Assembly (NCBI GenBank): GCA_964578865.1
Contig: CAZOES010000007.1
Location: 16,169 to 80,168, forward strand
Origin: an uncultured Gemmatimonadaceae bacterium
GTDB taxonomy: Bacteria > Gemmatimonadota > Gemmatimonadetes > Gemmatimonadales > GWC2-71-9
Direction of reading: 5' to 3'
DNA: 64,000 nucleotides
Shown in pieces: positions 25,496 to 33,260 of the stretch. The position numbers and the translations under genes were made by a program. Numbering within the stretch: position 1 is the first letter of the stretch; each line of letters begins with the position of its first letter. A model generated the notes under the pieces. It was not told the origin of the DNA. It did not search any database and worked only from the letters and a program-made list of their open reading frames with translations.

Positions 25496-25532
25496 GCAGC
25501 GTCCTTGTCGCGCCTTTGCATCCGAGGTGCCC

Positions 25533-27056
25533 ATGTCGTCAGGATCACTCTGGCTGGACGCCGAGCGACCGCACTTCGATCCGGTCAAAGTCTCGGATAG
25601 CTTTGATGTCGTGATAATCGGGGGTGGGATCACCGGTCTCTCGGCGGCTTGGTTTCTCAAGCAGACCGGGAGATCGGTGTGCGTGATAGAACGTCGGCGT
25701 CTGGGTGAGGGAGAGACCGGACACACCTCGGCCCACCTTTCTTATGTCACCGATGCCCGGCTCGGATCCTTGGCCCGGCGATTCGGGACCGATGCCGCCG
25801 CTATGGCGTGGGAGGCCGGTCTTACCGCCATCGACGCCATAGAAACGATCGTGACCGAGAACGGTATCGACTGCGGTTTTTCCCGGGTCGATGGCTATCT
25901 CTGTCCTTCGATCTACGGTGAAGACGATGAAGCGTCTGCCTTAGAGGCCGAAGCTGCCCTGGCCGGGAGACAGGGGTTTCTGGCCCACTTTCTCCCGGTT
26001 GGGCCGATCGAAGGTCTTCCGGCGGCAAAGTTCGGGGACCAGGGGCTGATTCACCCCCTGCGGTATCTCAGCGGATTGGCCCGGCTGGTTCATGGCGGTG
26101 GCTGCGCAGTGTTCGAGCACTCCGAAGTGACCTCGGTCGATGACGACCTGCATGTCCGGGTCAACGGAGAAACGCTCAGCTGTGCCGCTGTCGTGGTTGC
26201 GACCCACGTACCGATCACCGGTCACGCCCGGCTTCTCCGGGCCTCCCTCTTTCAGACCAAGATCTATCCCTATTCGACCTACGTGGTGGGAGCAAAGATC
26301 GGAAACACCGACCTTCCCGACGGCCTCTACTGCGATACCTCGAAGCCTTACTACTACCTGCGAGTCTCCCAGGAAAGTGACGGGAAGTACGCCGTGTTCG
26401 GCGGCGCCGATCATAAGACCGGTCAGGCGGATGACACCGAGTCCCGCTACTCCGATGTCGAGGCTTCACTCTACCAGTGGATTCCCGACGCCATCGTCGA
26501 TCGACGCTGGTCAGGTCAAGTGATCGAGACCAGCGACGGCCTGCCTTACATCGGAGAAACCGCCCCCCGTCAATTCTCGGCCACCGGCTTCGCCGGTAAC
26601 GGTCTCACCTTTGGTACCGTTGCCGGGATCATGGCTCGGGACTACCTGACCGGCCAGAGCAATCCGTGGGAGAAACTCTTCTCGCCGCACCGCCGGCCGC
26701 CGGTGAATGGTGTCTGGGATTATGTGGTGGAGAATCTCGACTATCCATATCAGCTGGTGGCTGGGTGGCTCAAGTCCGGCAAGGAGGATGCTTCAATGCG
26801 GGCTTTGCGTCCGGGCGAGGGCCGCATCATGATCCGCGGGGGGAAACGCTATGCCTGCCACCGCAGCGAGGCTGGTGAGATCTCCATTGTCTCCGCGGTC
26901 TGCACCCATCTCGGCTGCATTGTCCGGTTCAACCGGGCCGAACAGACGTGGGATTGCCCCTGCCATGGGTCGAGGTTCAGCCCCAGCGGAGAGGTACTCG
27001 GGGGGCCGGCGGAGAAGCCACTGGAGACCCTGCGCCAACCGGCAGCCCGTTCATGA
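25533..27056 (+). CDS. FAD-dependent oxidoreductase fused to C-terminal Rieske [2Fe-2S] domain
   Basis: Dinucleotide fold FDVVIIGGGITGLSAA. Rieske motifs CTHLGC ... CPCHGS. The start is ATG 25533, or GTG 25527. Confidence 0.8.
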   Translation: MSSGSLWLDAERPHFDPVKVSDSFDVVIIGGGITGLSAAWFLKQTGRSVCVIERRRLGEGETGHTSAHLSYVTDARLGSLARRFGTDAAAMAWEAGLTAIDAIETIVTENGIDCGFSRVDGYLCPSIYGEDDEASALEAEAALAGRQGFLAHFLPVGPIEGLPAAKFGDQGLIHPLRYLSGLARLVHGGGCAVFEHSEVTSVDDDLHVRVNGETLSCAAVVVATHVPITGHARLLRASLFQTKIYPYSTYVVGAKIGNTDLPDGLYCDTSKPYYYLRVSQESDGKYAVFGGADHKTGQADDTESRYSDVEASLYQWIPDAIVDRRWSGQVIETSDGLPYIGETAPRQFSATGFAGNGLTFGTVAGIMARDYLTGQSNPWEKLFSPHRRPPVNGVWDYVVENLDYPYQLVAGWLKSGKEDASMRALRPGEGRIMIRGGKRYACHRSEAGEISIVSAVCTHLGCIVRFNRAEQTWDCPCHGSRFSPSGEVLGGPAEKPLETLRQPAARS

Positions 27057-27121: not shown

Positions 27122-28954
27122 GTGCGCAATGCCATCCGCCGGTTGATTTTCGCGGTTGTTCTGGCGGTTCTGCCAACTTTTCTTCCAGCTCAACAAACCG
27201 CTCGCTACCAACGGCGCGAACTGACTATTCCGGTGCGGGACGGCACCCCGCTCTTTGCGGTTGCGCTGATACCTCAGGACCAGCCGAAGCCCCTTCCGAT
27301 CATCCTGATCCGCACCCCCTTCAGCGCGGCACGGGAGTTTCGCAATGCCGAGCTGCCGCTCTCGCTGAGAGAGCTGGGGGAGGATGGCTACATCTTTGTG
27401 GTGGAGGACATTCGCGGCCGATTCGGGTCGAAGGGCGAGTTTGTCACCAGTCGCCCCCAGAATCCGGGTGGGGTGGACGAGTCGACCGACGCGTGGGATA
27501 CCATCGACTGGCTGGTGCAGAACCTGCCGCACAACAACGGCAGGGTGGGGGTGATCGGGATTTCGTATCGTGGCTGGCTGGCGGGTCTGGCCGGTGTAAA
27601 TCCCCATCCGGCGCTCAAGGCGATTTCACCCCAGGCGCCCAGCGCCGATACCTGGCTGGGCGACGACTTTTTTCACCAGGGGGCCTTTCGTCTGACCCAG
27701 GGTGTGGCCTACACCGCGTACATCGAGAGCGAAAATGGCCTGAGCCCAACCAACTACGATCAATACGCCTGGTACCTCGGCTTCCCAACTTTGGATTCGC
27801 TGGCCCGGGCGACCGGGATCGCCGAGACGCCCTCATGGAAAGGCTTCGTGGCCCATCCGGCTTACGATGAATACTGGAAGGCGCGGGCGCTGCAGCGGGT
27901 GCTGACCAAGGCGGAGGTGGCCACTCTGTTTGTCGGCGGATTCTGGGATGAGGAGGACATGCTCGGTCCGGAGTTAGGCTACCGGACCGTTGAGAAACAG
28001 GATCCCAGGGGGATCAATCGAATTGCGATGGGACCCTGGTTCCATGGTGGGTGGGCCCGGCCCGGCGGCGACACTCTGGGGCCAATTCGGCTGGATAACA
28101 AGACCGCCGACCATTTCAGAGAAAAGATCCAGCGTCCCTGGCTGGCTCACTACCTTCATGGCCAAGGCGACGGGACGTTCCCCGAAGCCTGGGTCTTTGA
28201 GACTGGAGGGAATCAGTGGCGGACCTTTGATCAATGGCCGCCGAGGCAGGCGGCACCCCGTAAGCTGTATCTGTGGGGCGGGGGGAAGCTCTCCTTCGAC
28301 CCGCCACCCCCGCCGCGCCCGATTCGAGCCGGTCCCACCCCCATGCACAACGGTGAATCGGACGGCTTCATCTCCGATCCCGATCATCCAGTTCCCTATG
28401 TGCCTCGGCCCGACGATGGTAACGGCTGGCACAACTGGCTGCAGCAGGATCAGCGTTTTGTCGATGGTAGGCCCGACGTACTGACCTGGCAGTCCGAGCC
28501 GCTCACCGAGGATCTGGTGATCGCGGGTGATGTTGCCGCTCACCTGTTCGCTTCAACGACCGGAAGCGATGCCGACTGGGTGGTGAAGTTGATCGATGTC
28601 GCGCCCGACACGGCGAGCAGCGGCCCGATAACGGGAGGGTATCAGCTGATGGTCAACGCCGACATCATGCGGGGACGTTACTGGAAGGGGTATTCGCAGG
28701 GGGTGCCGATACCGCGGAACACCATCACCGAGTTCAGCCTGGACCTGCAGCAGCAACTCTACCGGTTCAAGAAAGGCCACCGGCTCATGGTGCAGGTCCA
28801 GAGCAGCTGGTTCCCGCTGTACGATCGCAATCCACAGACTTTCGTGCCCAACATCTTCAAAGCCCGGGCCGCCGACTACCGGGCCCAGGAGCACCGGGTG
28901 TATCACACCTCACTGGCACCTTCTCACCTGGTGCTCCCGGTCCTGCAGGATTAG
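27122..28954 (+). CDS. CocE/NonD family hydrolase (S15 X-Pro dipeptidyl-peptidase-like), secreted
   Basis: Family-typical layout with nucleophile elbow GISYRGW and a C-terminal jelly-roll region. Signal peptide MRNAIRRLIFAVVLAVLPTFLPAQ. Confidence 0.85.
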   Translation: MRNAIRRLIFAVVLAVLPTFLPAQQTARYQRRELTIPVRDGTPLFAVALIPQDQPKPLPIILIRTPFSAAREFRNAELPLSLRELGEDGYIFVVEDIRGRFGSKGEFVTSRPQNPGGVDESTDAWDTIDWLVQNLPHNNGRVGVIGISYRGWLAGLAGVNPHPALKAISPQAPSADTWLGDDFFHQGAFRLTQGVAYTAYIESENGLSPTNYDQYAWYLGFPTLDSLARATGIAETPSWKGFVAHPAYDEYWKARALQRVLTKAEVATLFVGGFWDEEDMLGPELGYRTVEKQDPRGINRIAMGPWFHGGWARPGGDTLGPIRLDNKTADHFREKIQRPWLAHYLHGQGDGTFPEAWVFETGGNQWRTFDQWPPRQAAPRKLYLWGGGKLSFDPPPPPRPIRAGPTPMHNGESDGFISDPDHPVPYVPRPDDGNGWHNWLQQDQRFVDGRPDVLTWQSEPLTEDLVIAGDVAAHLFASTTGSDADWVVKLIDVAPDTASSGPITGGYQLMVNADIMRGRYWKGYSQGVPIPRNTITEFSLDLQQQLYRFKKGHRLMVQVQSSWFPLYDRNPQTFVPNIFKARAADYRAQEHRVYHTSLAPSHLVLPVLQD

Positions 28955-28960
28955 CCGAGT

Positions 28961-29497
28961 CTAGTCGCGCAGGAAGTGACAGGTATAGCCACCGGGATTT
29001 TTCTTCAGGTAATCCTGGTGATAGCTCTCGGCGCTGTACCAGGTCGCCGGATTCTCGATGCTGGTGCTGATCGGCCGCTTCCACTTGCCAGAGGCATTCA
29101 CCCGGGCGATGACCCGCTCGGCCGCCGCCTTCTGCTCGGGGTTCTGGGGGAAGATGGCTGAGCGGTACTGAGTCCCGATGTCGTTGCCCTGACGGTTCAG
29201 GGTGGTCGGGTCATGCAGCCGGAAGAACCACTTCTCCAGGAGATCCTCGTAGCTCAGCACCGAGGGATCGAAGGTGATCTTGACCGCCTCCGCATGGCCC
29301 GACTTGCTGTCATGGGTGTCGTGGTAGGTGGGATTCTCCAGCCACCCGCCGGTATAGCCCACATCGGTGTCGATCACTCCGGCTACACCCCGGAGGATGT
29401 CCTCCACTCCCCAGAAACAGCCACCGGCCAGTACGGCAACCTCAGTCTGGCGGGCTCCGGCGACCGCCGGCCCTCCAGCATTCTTGCTCTCATTCAT
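28961..29497 (-). CDS. msrA: Peptide-methionine (S)-S-oxide reductase
   Basis: GGCFWGVE active-site motif and overall MsrA pattern. Confidence 0.9.
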   Translation of the reverse strand: MNESKNAGGPAVAGARQTEVAVLAGGCFWGVEDILRGVAGVIDTDVGYTGGWLENPTYHDTHDSKSGHAEAVKITFDPSVLSYEDLLEKWFFRLHDPTTLNRQGNDIGTQYRSAIFPQNPEQKAAAERVIARVNASGKWKRPISTSIENPATWYSAESYHQDYLKKNPGGYTCHFLRD

Positions 29498-29568
29498 GTT
29501 GGTCTCCTCCTATGGGTCCCGCACCAACCTAACGATCCCGGCGGGGAATCGGTTCTCTTTTCGCGGCT

Positions 29569-30663
29569 TTAGCCGCGATGAAACGCCCGAGGCAACGTGA
29601 TGGTGAATGTAGCGCCCCGGTCCACTTTACCCTCTCCGGAGATCGACCCGCCGTGCCGTTGGATGATCCGTTTGGTCAAGGCCAGCCCGACCCCGGTTCC
29701 CTCGAACTGTTCCGGTGGATGGAGCCGCTGGAAGACCCCGAAGAGCTTGTCGGCGAAGCGCATGTCGAAGCCGGCCCCGTTGTCGCTAACCTTAAAGATC
29801 ACCTGGTCTTTCTCGAGACGAGAGGTGATTTCCAGCCGTGGATCACTCCGATGATGGGTGAACTTGGCGGCATTGCTGACCAGATTGAAAACTACCTGGC
29901 GCAGCAAGGCAGCGTCCCCCATCACCGTCGGCAGGTCCCCGATTTCCACCCTGAGCCGGCGTCCGATTTCGGTCTGCTGGACTTCGCTCACTACTTGGCG
30001 GACCAGGGCTTCCATATCGACCGGCACCCCAGTAATGGAAGTGCGACCCAGGCGGGAGAAATCGAGCAGGTCGTCGATCAGTTGGCCCATCCGCAGGCTG
30101 TTATCCCTGACGATGCCCAGGAGGCGCTGACCTTCTTCGTCGAGCGAAGCCTGATGATCGTCCAGCAGAATTCGAGAGAACCCGTTGATGGCCCGGAGCG
30201 GCGCCCGGAGGTCATGGGAGACCGAGTAGCTGAAGCTTTCCAGCTCCTGGTTGGCAGTCTGCAACTCCTGATTGGCCCGCGCCAGCGCCGCCGGAGTCGG
30301 CAGAGCCACGGCTTTGGGCAACAGCGGGACCAGCGCGATGGCGGTGCCCACCGAGGCGGCGGCGGTCAATGCCTTCACACCTCCGGCTACCCAATAGCTG
30401 GGGTGCCAGAGGGTCCAGATCTCCATCAAGTGAGTAGTCCCGCAACCGGCGATGAAGATGGCGAACAACCAGAAGATCCAGTTGAACGGTACATCCTTTC
30501 GTTTGCGGACGAACCAGACCAGGCCGATCGGGATCGAGTAGTAGGACAGGGTAATGACCGAGTCGGAAATCAGGTGCAGCAGGACCAACCCCCGCTGCCA
30601 CAGGTAGCAGTAGCCGTGGGGATAGAATTCGGCCATCTCCGCGGGAAGCTGGGGGAGGAACAT
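29569..30663 (-). CDS. Sensor histidine kinase with N-terminal ethylene-binding-domain (ETR1-like) 3-TM module
   Basis: The N-terminus LISDSVITLSYYSIPIGLVWFVRKRKDVPFNWIFWLFAIFIAGCGTTHLMEIWTLW...VKALTAAASVGTAIALVPLLP aligns with my memory of Arabidopsis ETR1 residues about 20-110. The aligned blocks are ISD, Y.SIP, FV.K, CG.TH and K.LTA. An H-box (SHDLRAPL) and an HATPase domain (DNGAGF, GTGVGL) follow. ATG 30663 has GGAGG upstream. Confidence 0.8.
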   Translation of the reverse strand: MFLPQLPAEMAEFYPHGYCYLWQRGLVLLHLISDSVITLSYYSIPIGLVWFVRKRKDVPFNWIFWLFAIFIAGCGTTHLMEIWTLWHPSYWVAGGVKALTAAASVGTAIALVPLLPKAVALPTPAALARANQELQTANQELESFSYSVSHDLRAPLRAINGFSRILLDDHQASLDEEGQRLLGIVRDNSLRMGQLIDDLLDFSRLGRTSITGVPVDMEALVRQVVSEVQQTEIGRRLRVEIGDLPTVMGDAALLRQVVFNLVSNAAKFTHHRSDPRLEITSRLEKDQVIFKVSDNGAGFDMRFADKLFGVFQRLHPPEQFEGTGVGLALTKRIIQRHGGSISGEGKVDRGATFTITLPRAFHRG

Positions 30664-30874
30664 GAGGCACCTCCAACCCGGAGTGGGCCGGGACAAGGAC
30701 CACACCAGGCGGGTTGTATTCAGGGGGGTATCGTAGATTAGAAGGTATGGTCTTGATGGCAAGGCCGGCCAGGCCGGCTCATCAACCCGGGTGCATGATT
30801 TCTCGTGAAGCTGCCGGGGATGTAACGACTCCTTGCCCGGTGAGCGGGTGACTGGTACCGTGGGTTATCCCCTT

Positions 30875-31306
30875 ATGCAGGTATCCATGCCGATCGGGTA
30901 CGCGATCGACGCTTCTCGGCGGATCGTATTTCTGCGGGTGTGGGGAATCCTCGCAGGCCATATCGTCGAACAACTGGCCCTTACACTGCGTCAGATGGAG
31001 GGATTTGAGCCCGAGTTTTCAGTGCTCTGCGATCTACGGGAAGTGACTCGCTTCGCCATCGACCATCGCAAGGTGGCGGGATATGCCGCCAAGAGCGCCT
31101 TCCGGAGGGAAGCCCGTCGGGCCGTAATCGTCGGATCCAGCGAGTCGATGGGCATGACCCGGATGTATGAGCAGGTGGGTCGCTTCGAAGAGAGTCTGCG
31201 GATCTTCCACACCCGGGAGAGCGCACTCGAGTGGCTCGGCTGGCCGCCAGGTGAGCCGCTTCCCGCCGAATCAGGGGTTCTCGGGGCGCATCAGGTGATT
31301 GGCTGA
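30875..31306 (+). CDS. Hypothetical protein (possibly STAS/SpoIIAA-like fold)
   Basis: The ORF is coherent. The pattern ...RIVFLRVWG...VLCDLREV...RRAVIVGSSE...AWLG resembles STAS-like DUF proteins, so the assignment is tentative. The start is ATG 30875 or 30887. Confidence 0.4.
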   Translation: MQVSMPIGYAIDASRRIVFLRVWGILAGHIVEQLALTLRQMEGFEPEFSVLCDLREVTRFAIDHRKVAGYAAKSAFRREARRAVIVGSSESMGMTRMYEQVGRFEESLRIFHTRESALEWLGWPPGEPLPAESGVLGAHQVIG

Positions 31307-31407: not shown

Positions 31408-31423
31408 AGTCGCTTGAGCGACT
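31408..31423. promoter_or_regulatory. 16-bp inverted repeat AGTCGCT-TG-AGCGACT upstream of the usp genes
   Basis: Read directly. Perfect 7-bp arms lie 50 nt upstream of ATG 31473. Confidence 0.3.
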
Positions 31424-31472: not shown

Positions 31473-32318
31473 ATGCGGCACATACTGGTAGCCATAGACG
31501 AATCGCCGGAAGGCCGGGGAGCTCTGACCGGCGCGGCCCGATTGGCCAGCCGGGCCGCTGCCCGGTTGACCGCTCTGAAGATCGTACCTCCCGATTCCCC
31601 TCTGCTCGCCGGTCCCGGGGCGCTGGAGCGGCTGCAGCGCGACCACGCCGCCCTGATTTCGTTGCTCTCCCCGCCCATTCCACCGGTCGAGTTCGTGGTC
31701 GCGATCGGGCTCCCCGGAATCGAGATTTCCCGATTTGCCGAATCTTCCGGCGCCGACCTGGTGGTGCTGGGACGTAAACGCCGCAGCTCGGTCGAACGGC
31801 TCAGGGTGGGTTCTACGGCCGACGCGGTGGCCCGGCGCAGTCAGGTCCCCTGCATCTTCGTCGGGCCGGGAGACTCCAGCTTCGATCGGCTACTGGTCGC
31901 GCTCGATGGAACCGAACGGGGAATGCTGGTGCTCAACTGGGCCCGTCGCTTCGCCAAGGTGGTCGGGGCCAGACTGCAGGTGATCACTGTCGACCCGGTG
32001 TGCGACGATCCCCGGGGATCCCACGGGACTCACAACGGCAAGATCCGCCGGCTGGCTGAAGCAATAGAAACCCTCCGCCGGGAAGAGATCATTGCCCGGG
32101 AGACCTCGCCCACCTTCATCGCTGAACCGGCTCCCGCATTGCTGATTCAACGGGGCCGGGTGATCGACGAAGTCGTGAAGACCACCCTGCACACTCAGTC
32201 GGATCTCCTCGTGGTCGGGCATCACCGGGGTGGACCCGCCTCGACCAATGGAGAGTCGGGGGGAACTCGTTTCCTCCTCCGACTTAGTCCCGCCAATCTA
32301 CTCACCGTTCCCCTCTAG
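31473..32318 (+). CDS. Universal stress protein (tandem Usp domains)
   Basis: ILVAIDESPEG..., ADLVVLGRKRRS..., LLVALDGTERG..., DLLVVGHH. Confidence 0.8.
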   Translation: MRHILVAIDESPEGRGALTGAARLASRAAARLTALKIVPPDSPLLAGPGALERLQRDHAALISLLSPPIPPVEFVVAIGLPGIEISRFAESSGADLVVLGRKRRSSVERLRVGSTADAVARRSQVPCIFVGPGDSSFDRLLVALDGTERGMLVLNWARRFAKVVGARLQVITVDPVCDDPRGSHGTHNGKIRRLAEAIETLRREEIIARETSPTFIAEPAPALLIQRGRVIDEVVKTTLHTQSDLLVVGHHRGGPASTNGESGGTRFLLRLSPANLLTVPL

Positions 32319-32330
32319 AGGTGGTGGACT

Positions 32331-33260
32331 ATGATGAACACCTATCGTTCCATCCTGGTCCCGATCGACGGGACCGCCTTCGCGGAGCAGGCGCTGCCCC
32401 TGGCACTTGAACTGGCCCGCCAGCATCACGCGATTCTCCATCTGGCGATGGTGCATCAACCGGCCCCGGTCCTGGCGGCCGCGGTCGAGGTGCCGTCGGC
32501 AGGATTCATGATCGATGAAGAGTCCCGGCAGAAGGAGCAGAGCTATCTCGATCAGCTGGTCGAGCGACTCAAAGTCCGGCATCAGCCGGTCTCGGCGGTG
32601 ATTCTCAACGGAGAGGTCAATGAGGCGCTCGAGTCGCACGTTCGCCTGACAGTGACTGACCTGGTCGTCACCACTACCCACGGTCGCGGCCGGATGTCCC
32701 GGTTCTGGCTGGGGAGCGTGGCCGATCATCTGGTTCGCCACAGTCAGGTTCCGGTGATTCTGGTGCGGCCCGACAAGGCTTCCTCGGGGGTGACCCCCGG
32801 CACAATCGCGAAGGTGCTGGTCGCGCTCGATGGCAGCCCCTTCGCTGAGCGGGCTCTGCAGCACGCCAGTGCCATTGGCCGGGCCTACGGTGCCTCATTC
32901 GAACTGGTCTACGTGGTCGAACCACCCCTGCCAATCGCCGATCCCAACGGGATGATGATCTTGCCCCCCGCCGCAGAAACCGAGAAGGCGTTGATCCTCA
33001 AGGCCAGCCGGTATCTCGAGAGCATCGCCCATCCGCTCCGGGCTCAGGGTCTCCAGGTCGGCTGCACGCCGGTGATGGGGAGCGGGGTGGCAGAGACCCT
33101 GCTGGAAGAAGCCGGGAAGAGTGGCGCCGACCTGATTGCTCTGGCCAGCCACGGATTGGGGGGGCTTAAGCGGGTCGTGATCGGGAGTGTGGCCGATAAC
33201 CTGATCCGTCAGACCAACATTCCAATACTGGTGGTGCGGCCGGCGGCCGGGACCTTCTGA
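32331..33260 (+). CDS. Universal stress protein (tandem Usp domains)
   Basis: ILVPIDGTAFAE..., TTTHGRGRMSRFWLGSVADHLVRHSQVPVILVRP..., VLVALDGSPFAE..., ASHGLGGLKRVVIGSVADNLIRQTNIPILVVRP. Confidence 0.85.
   Translation: MMNTYRSILVPIDGTAFAEQALPLALELARQHHAILHLAMVHQPAPVLAAAVEVPSAGFMIDEESRQKEQSYLDQLVERLKVRHQPVSAVILNGEVNEALESHVRLTVTDLVVTTTHGRGRMSRFWLGSVADHLVRHSQVPVILVRPDKASSGVTPGTIAKVLVALDGSPFAERALQHASAIGRAYGASFELVYVVEPPLPIADPNGMMILPPAAETEKALILKASRYLESIAHPLRAQGLQVGCTPVMGSGVAETLLEEAGKSGADLIALASHGLGGLKRVVIGSVADNLIRQTNIPILVVRPAAGTF

Follow-up and report, generated by a model that had tools for sequence, protein, structure and literature searches.

The 64,000-nucleotide stretch of DNA analysed here (the window) holds, at 29569-30663 of the minus strand, an intact open reading frame of 364 codons plus stop that encodes a sensor histidine kinase, P0001. 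We preferred the ATG at 30663 as the start, the same start that an earlier sequence-only reading had chosen, because a Shine-Dalgarno sequence (GGAGG, 30670-30674, minus strand) lies 6 nt before it and because homologues in the alignment have an equally short N-terminus, with 12-17 residues ahead of a shared conserved motif. A longer frame opening at a TTG at 30762 was rejected, since its additional N-terminal residues lack conservation and the Shine-Dalgarno sequence is placed for the ATG instead. Scanning the vicinity of the gene for the sigma-70 consensus, which is uninformative for this phylum, gave no match. On the minus strand at 29498-29580, a 7-bp GC-rich hairpin (CGCGGC-UAAA-GCCGCG) encloses the stop codon, and a second hairpin falls within the 71-nt gap that separates the gene from msrA (fold z = -2.2; no clear U-tract).

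The msrA gene, for peptide methionine sulfoxide reductase (28961-29497, minus strand; Pfam PMSR, E = 4.8e-61), starts from its own GGAGGAG Shine-Dalgarno sequence 71 bp downstream of the kinase gene and had been overlooked in the sequence-only reading. On the plus strand beyond the kinase start are a divergently transcribed gene for a 157-aa protein (30833-31306) and two genes for universal stress proteins (31473-32318 and 32331-33260), each encoding two Usp domains (Pfam E = 7.9e-37 and 5.3e-52). The sequence-only reading had named the two usp genes and had called the 157-aa product STAS-like; this product is weakly STAS/SpoIIAA-like through sub-threshold Pfam matches only (SpoIIAA-like, 19.5 bits vs. 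a cut-off of 25; DUF7793, 19.9 vs. 26), and it has no NCBIfam match. A short inverted repeat, AGTCGCTCAAGCGACT, occupies 31408-31423, ~50 nt ahead of the first of the two usp genes, and was placed on the minus strand by the terminator scan. The plus strand also encodes a DAO-type FAD oxidoreductase with a C-terminal Rieske [2Fe-2S] domain (25527-27056; Pfam DAO E = 7e-46, Rieske E = 4e-11) and an S15-family X-Pro dipeptidyl-peptidase of the CocE/NonD type with a PepX_C domain (27122-28954). Orthologues of the peptidase in same-genus genomes are 64-70% identical and sit in different neighbourhoods.

Three Pfam domains make up the kinase. The ethylene-binding domain ETR1_N (PF25487) spans residues 26-121 (30301-30588, minus strand; E = 2.5e-41, and recovered in a six-frame search of the genome), with a score of 140.3 bits against a cut-off of 27 and coverage of profile positions 2-97 of 97. 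It is followed by HisKA (DHp) at residues 142-206 (30046-30240, minus strand; E = 2.3e-15), which carries the phospho-acceptor His150 (CAT, 30214-30216), and by HATPase_c at residues 249-359 (29587-29919, minus strand; E = 1.3e-23), in which the N, G1, F and G2 boxes are intact. Pfam found no GAF, PAS or REC domain in the protein, in agreement with the initial view that the sensor is wired directly to the kinase modules. NCBIfam has no model that matches the N-terminal domain, which explains why database relatives are called just "ATP-binding protein" or "histidine kinase".

Conservation of the ethylene-binding site was assessed in a MAFFT alignment to P0125, a database ETR1 orthologue (Noccaea, Brassicaceae, UniRef), together with the Swiss-Prot Passiflora ETR1. 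P0125 is, as we take it, 99% identical to Arabidopsis ETR1 over residues 1-130. P0001 keeps all seven ethylene-binding residues of ETR1 as well as Lys91 (8/8 identical): Asp25 corresponds to D34, Tyr32 to Y41, Ile35 to I44, Pro36 to P45, Ile62 to I71, Cys65 to C74, His69 to H78 and Lys91 to K97. ETR1 T94, S98, A102 and P110 are likewise retained, and identity to ETR1 residues 18-117 is 39%. The departures are a loop between transmembrane helices 2 and 3 that is three residues shorter, Tyr in place of F33 and Pro in place of H107. Alignment to ETR1 C65/H69 puts the predicted Cu(I) ligands at Cys74 (TGC, 30442-30444) and His78 (CAC, 30430-30432), within the CGTTH sequence of helix 2 (30430-30444, minus strand).

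The same positions are conserved among relatives: across 65 aligned homologues that share the architecture of P0001, D34, Y41, P45, I71, C74, H78 and K97 are invariant and conservation of I44 is 90% or higher. In ETR1, seven residues have been described as required, along with bonds from Asp25 to His69 and to Lys91 (PMC11971883, PMC8879215, PMC6586836); Cys65 and His69 are the Cu(I) ligands (PMC6586836, PMC11971883), and Lys91 lies on helix 3, where its bond to Asp25 bears on signal output (PMC11971883). The sequence-only reading had matched blocks of the protein to ETR1, and every block it listed is present, with a likeness far beyond chance; in the formal alignment the Asp, Tyr, Ile-Pro, Ile, Cys, His and Lys columns are equivalent, and the Pfam match is strong and full-length. 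Judged by alignment, the three-helix domain is a genuine, fully conserved relative of the copper/ethylene-binding domain of plant receptors, and P0001 is predicted to bind ethylene.

Just before helix 1, outside the Pfam ETR1_N model, the 65 homologues share a PHGxCYLW motif, which reads PHGYCYLW at residues 15-22 of P0001 (30598-30621, minus strand) and in which P15, H16, G17, C19, Y20 and W22 are each at least 90% conserved. In the MAFFT alignment C19 falls on ETR1 Cys4, a disulfide cysteine of the plant dimer, and cyanobacterial ethylene receptors also have a single Cys at the N-terminal site, according to the literature. We predict an N-out, C-in topology on account of the basic loop between the first two transmembrane helices (VRKRKD) and the necessarily cytoplasmic kinase; this orientation would place the motif and C19 in the periplasm, a position comparable to that of the ETR1 disulfide cysteines in the lumen. 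His16 and Cys19, both predicted to be periplasmic, could act in disulfide dimerization or copper loading.

An AlphaFold2 model built on the 65-homologue alignment had a mean pLDDT of 81.7 and a pTM of 0.65, with only moderate values of about 70-78 in the membrane part. It places helices at residues 24-54, 61-83 and 90-111, after which a short Pro-rich hinge leads into a single continuous helix (124-173) that carries His150. The model is of a monomer, in which a dimeric Cu site cannot appear, and a PDB search found no solved structure covering the membrane domain.

The transmitter is equally conserved. The H-box SHDLRAP is invariant in the 65 homologues, as are H150, N264, D294, G296, G298, F308, F311, G322, G324 and G326. 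Among solved transmitters in the PDB, the nearest are 8f71, from a histidine kinase (E = 3.7e-41), and those of bacteriophytochromes (E = 3e-32). By these matches and residues, the catalytic core is intact and of the phytochrome (Cph1/BphP) type.

We then placed P0001 within its family. A search with residues 1-125 gave 8,311 matching representatives of 50%-identity clusters at E ≤ 1e-3, a number that falls to 6,258 at E ≤ 1e-10 and to 1,551 at E ≤ 1e-30; the matched proteins are 145 to 1,775 aa long. PF25487 is present in 120/120 of the best full-length matches, ~70 of which, by table count, have exactly the minimal architecture of P0001, and the others insert PAS or GAF domains; this architecture is not unusual. 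[quoted passage not shown] Functional evidence exists for three bacterial members only, and binding of ethylene by the isolated domain for AzoEtr1 and SynEtr1 only; AzoEtr1 is a validated family member from outside the cyanobacteria (PMC11819568). On sequence grounds, P0001 is a canonical member of a bacterial family that is very large, has been catalogued before and has its own Pfam model.

Within the phylum, the domain is rare. A six-frame search of the genome, a metagenome-assembled genome of 265 contigs that is 78.8% complete, found ETR1_N as a single copy, in the P0001 gene. It was above the cut-off in 0 of 24 same-genus and 0 of 16 same-order genomes, and in a sample of Gemmatimonadota it occurred in 11/401 genomes and 6/147 genera, with no further positive from the same genus; overall, none was found in the ~39 other same-genus genomes searched. 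The other Gemmatimonadota positives differ from P0001 in architecture and share only ~26% identity with it over the kinase core. The best named relative, at 61% identity, is encoded in a Gemmatimonadales metagenome-assembled genome and points to soil Gemmatimonadales as the group of the present genome. A pattern scan of a collection of genome contigs was dominated by the common H-box pattern and matched mostly unrelated kinases, so it said little about how the ethylene-binding domain is distributed among taxa.

A single occurrence among so many same-genus genomes, in an assembly this fragmented and incomplete, is what would be seen if the contig, or the part of it bearing P0001, were foreign to the genome through a binning or assembly artefact, which would make the rarity in the genus spurious. 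We regard this as extremely improbable, because the flanking peptidase and msrA have their best matches in same-genus genomes (68-78% DNA and 64-77% protein identity), G+C content is even over the 64-kb window (0.59-0.67) and the 61% identical orthologue belongs to a Gemmatimonadales genome. Such an artefact would in any case leave the identity of the gene unchanged.

Comparison with orthologous loci showed what sets the local context of P0001 apart. Seven such loci were examined (L003, L004, L006, L118, L119, L120 and L121), with kinases 59-67% identical to P0001. In 7/7, a gene for a ~147-aa single-domain REC protein overlaps the stop codon of the kinase gene or lies within 6 bp of it, and in 6/7 a ~770-aa REC-PAS-HisKA-HATPase-REC hybrid kinase comes next in the cassette; at L004 and L006, the cassette is followed by genes for a CHASE3-PAS kinase and for another REC protein. 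An IS110-family transposase lies directly upstream of the cassette at L121. At the P0001 locus, msrA sits on the same strand in the slot of the response regulator, consistent with the earlier observation that no regulator gene adjoins the kinase. Because the regulator is present in 7/7 orthologous loci, we judged that its absence beside P0001 is a derived, local feature. Neither msrA nor the 30833-31306 gene nor the Usp genes lie next to any of the seven orthologous kinases, and a DNA search of 25 relatives, together with an inspection of the regions around the peptidase and msrA orthologues, found no conserved local gene order in the genus.

The missing regulator and hybrid kinase, a gene order not shared with relatives and the lack of ETR1_N in the same-genus genomes searched would also be expected of a functionless remnant that ceased to signal once rearrangement or transfer had separated it from the cassette with its regulator and hybrid kinase. 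Decay of this kind seems very unlikely for a 364-codon frame that is intact, keeps all binding and catalytic residues and is preceded by a strong Shine-Dalgarno sequence, in a genome that encodes a compatible Rcp1-type regulator elsewhere. Orphan kinases are, moreover, common and functional in bacteria.

The neighbourhood bears on the nature of the signal as well, as msrA and the Usp genes suggest a role in stress or redox physiology more than in signalling with plants. The domain might bind Cu(I) and yet serve a stress regulon by reporting on copper availability, on oxidation of the Cu(I)/Cys site in redox or O2 stress, or on a different small pi-acceptor ligand. The position of the gene between msrA, whose product repairs oxidized methionine, and two Usp genes would fit this, as would the many redox genes in the window, the size of a family that extends across many lineages not associated with plants, and the fact that no more than a handful of its members have been tested. 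However, the msrA/Usp context is probably incidental, since it is conserved in none of the 7 orthologous loci, and conservation extends beyond the Cu ligands to all seven ethylene-specific residues of ETR1, which are strictly kept; according to the literature, all proteins with these residues that have been assayed bind ethylene. A signal other than ethylene is on balance unlikely, though it carries appreciable weight.

We searched the genome for a regulator that could serve P0001 in place of the missing one. Querying with the regulator of an orthologue gave one outstanding match, a 150-aa REC protein on another contig (C146:6862-7314) that is 59-62% identical to the cassette regulators, with the runner-up in the genome at 40%, and that belongs to the RcpA/RcpB/Rcp1 class of phytochrome regulators. 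The genome also encodes single-domain REC proteins at C54:16439-16855 and C2:68277-68687. The C146 REC gene is the second of three co-directional genes (C146:5090-8864), between a CHASE3-PAS-HisKA-HATPase kinase and a REC-HisKA-HATPase-REC hybrid. The CHASE3-PAS kinase is the closest transmitter paralogue of P0001 in the genome (kinase core 53% identical). Over the DHp domain the two share 65% identity; the corresponding values against P0001 are 64-74% for true orthologues and 54-55% for the CHASE3 kinases of orthologous loci. A tree of kinase cores had a poorly supported backbone, and P0001 with P0002 was the only supported group.

The similarities in DHp and REC fit a scheme in which P0001 and the C146 CHASE3-PAS kinase feed one regulator. 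We infer that the C146 REC is the best partner candidate in this 78.8%-complete genome, from which a better partner may be unsampled. A bolder proposal, that P0001 lost its own regulator and now signals through the Rcp1-type regulator that belongs to the CHASE3-PAS kinase, is speculative and we would not expect it to hold. Were it true, the pair would form a two-input node in a soil Gemmatimonadales, combining ethylene and a periplasmic signal, and, as an optional extra, co-transcription of the kinase gene with msrA would tie the receptor to the repair of oxidative damage.

Weighing these alternatives, we favour the reading that P0001 is a homodimeric inner-membrane sensor kinase of the ethylene-receptor family working by the scheme below, with a probability of roughly 0.7. 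Each monomer would hold one Cu(I) on Cys74 and His78, with Asp34 positioning His78 and bonding to Lys97 on helix 3. Binding of ethylene, or a close small alkene, to Cu(I) would shift helix 3, and the Pro-rich hinge (residues 113-124), followed by the coiled coil, would carry this movement to the DHp domain. Following the precedent of ETR1, SynEtr1 and AzoEtr1, the ligand would act as an inverse agonist that lowers autophosphorylation of His150, and unliganded P0001 would phosphorylate an Rcp1-type single-domain response regulator. The gene for this regulator would now lie apart from that of P0001, with the C146 REC common to P0001 and the CHASE3-PAS kinase, and from the REC the signal would probably pass on to a hybrid kinase, on the pattern of the conserved three-gene cassette at orthologous loci.

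P0001 adds a clean, minimal and fully canonical ethylene-receptor-type kinase from Gemmatimonadota, a phylum that is abundant in soil and poorly cultured and in which the ethylene-binding domain is rare. It supports the idea that soil bacteria beyond cyanobacteria and proteobacteria perceive ethylene, and so short a fusion of sensor and kinase could be convenient for structural and biochemical studies of kinase control by the Cu/ethylene site. The interest is modest and comes from the minimal architecture, the scarcity of the domain in the phylum and the detached regulator; no new question is opened, as the family, the residue signature and the likely signalling logic have already been described.

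Among characterized systems, AzoEtr1 of Azospirillum brasilense Sp7 shares with P0001 the three-helix domain, the seven binding residues and a C-terminal histidine kinase, and, by the residue numbers given in the paper, its D35/C75/H79/K98 have the same spacing as D34/C74/H78/K97 of P0001, offset by one (PMC11819568). AzoEtr1 is longer (525 vs. 364 aa), its sensor being separated from its kinase by a PAS domain, which P0001 lacks. A small single-domain REC protein is encoded immediately downstream of AzoEtr1, as AzoRR(etr1), and of the P0001 orthologues, whereas the regulator of P0001 is not adjacent. Ethylene binding and phenotypes have been shown experimentally for AzoEtr1 (PMC11819568), while P0001 is known from its sequence. 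SynEtr1 (slr1212) of Synechocystis sp. PCC 6803, compared here by description, also couples an ethylene-binding domain to a histidine kinase and signals by phosphotransfer to a response regulator, according to the literature; unlike P0001, it is a dual receptor for light and ethylene, in which a cyanobacteriochrome GAF photosensor separates the two modules. The subfamily 1 receptors ETR1 and ERS1 of Arabidopsis have the binding residues, the N-terminal Cys and all histidine-kinase catalytic boxes in common with P0001, which differs from them in having no GAF or receiver domain and one N-terminal Cys rather than two; plant receptors are described as signalling mainly through CTR1 and not by phosphorelay. 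On the output side, the likeness is to Cph1-Rcp1 and bacteriophytochrome pairs, as the P0001 transmitter (DHp and CA) is closest in the PDB to bacteriophytochrome kinases and the candidate C146 REC is closest to bacteriophytochrome regulators as well as to RcpA, RcpB and Rcp1. The inputs differ, with a predicted membrane Cu/ethylene-binding domain in P0001 in place of the bilin-binding PAS-GAF-PHY photosensor of Cph1 and the bacteriophytochromes.
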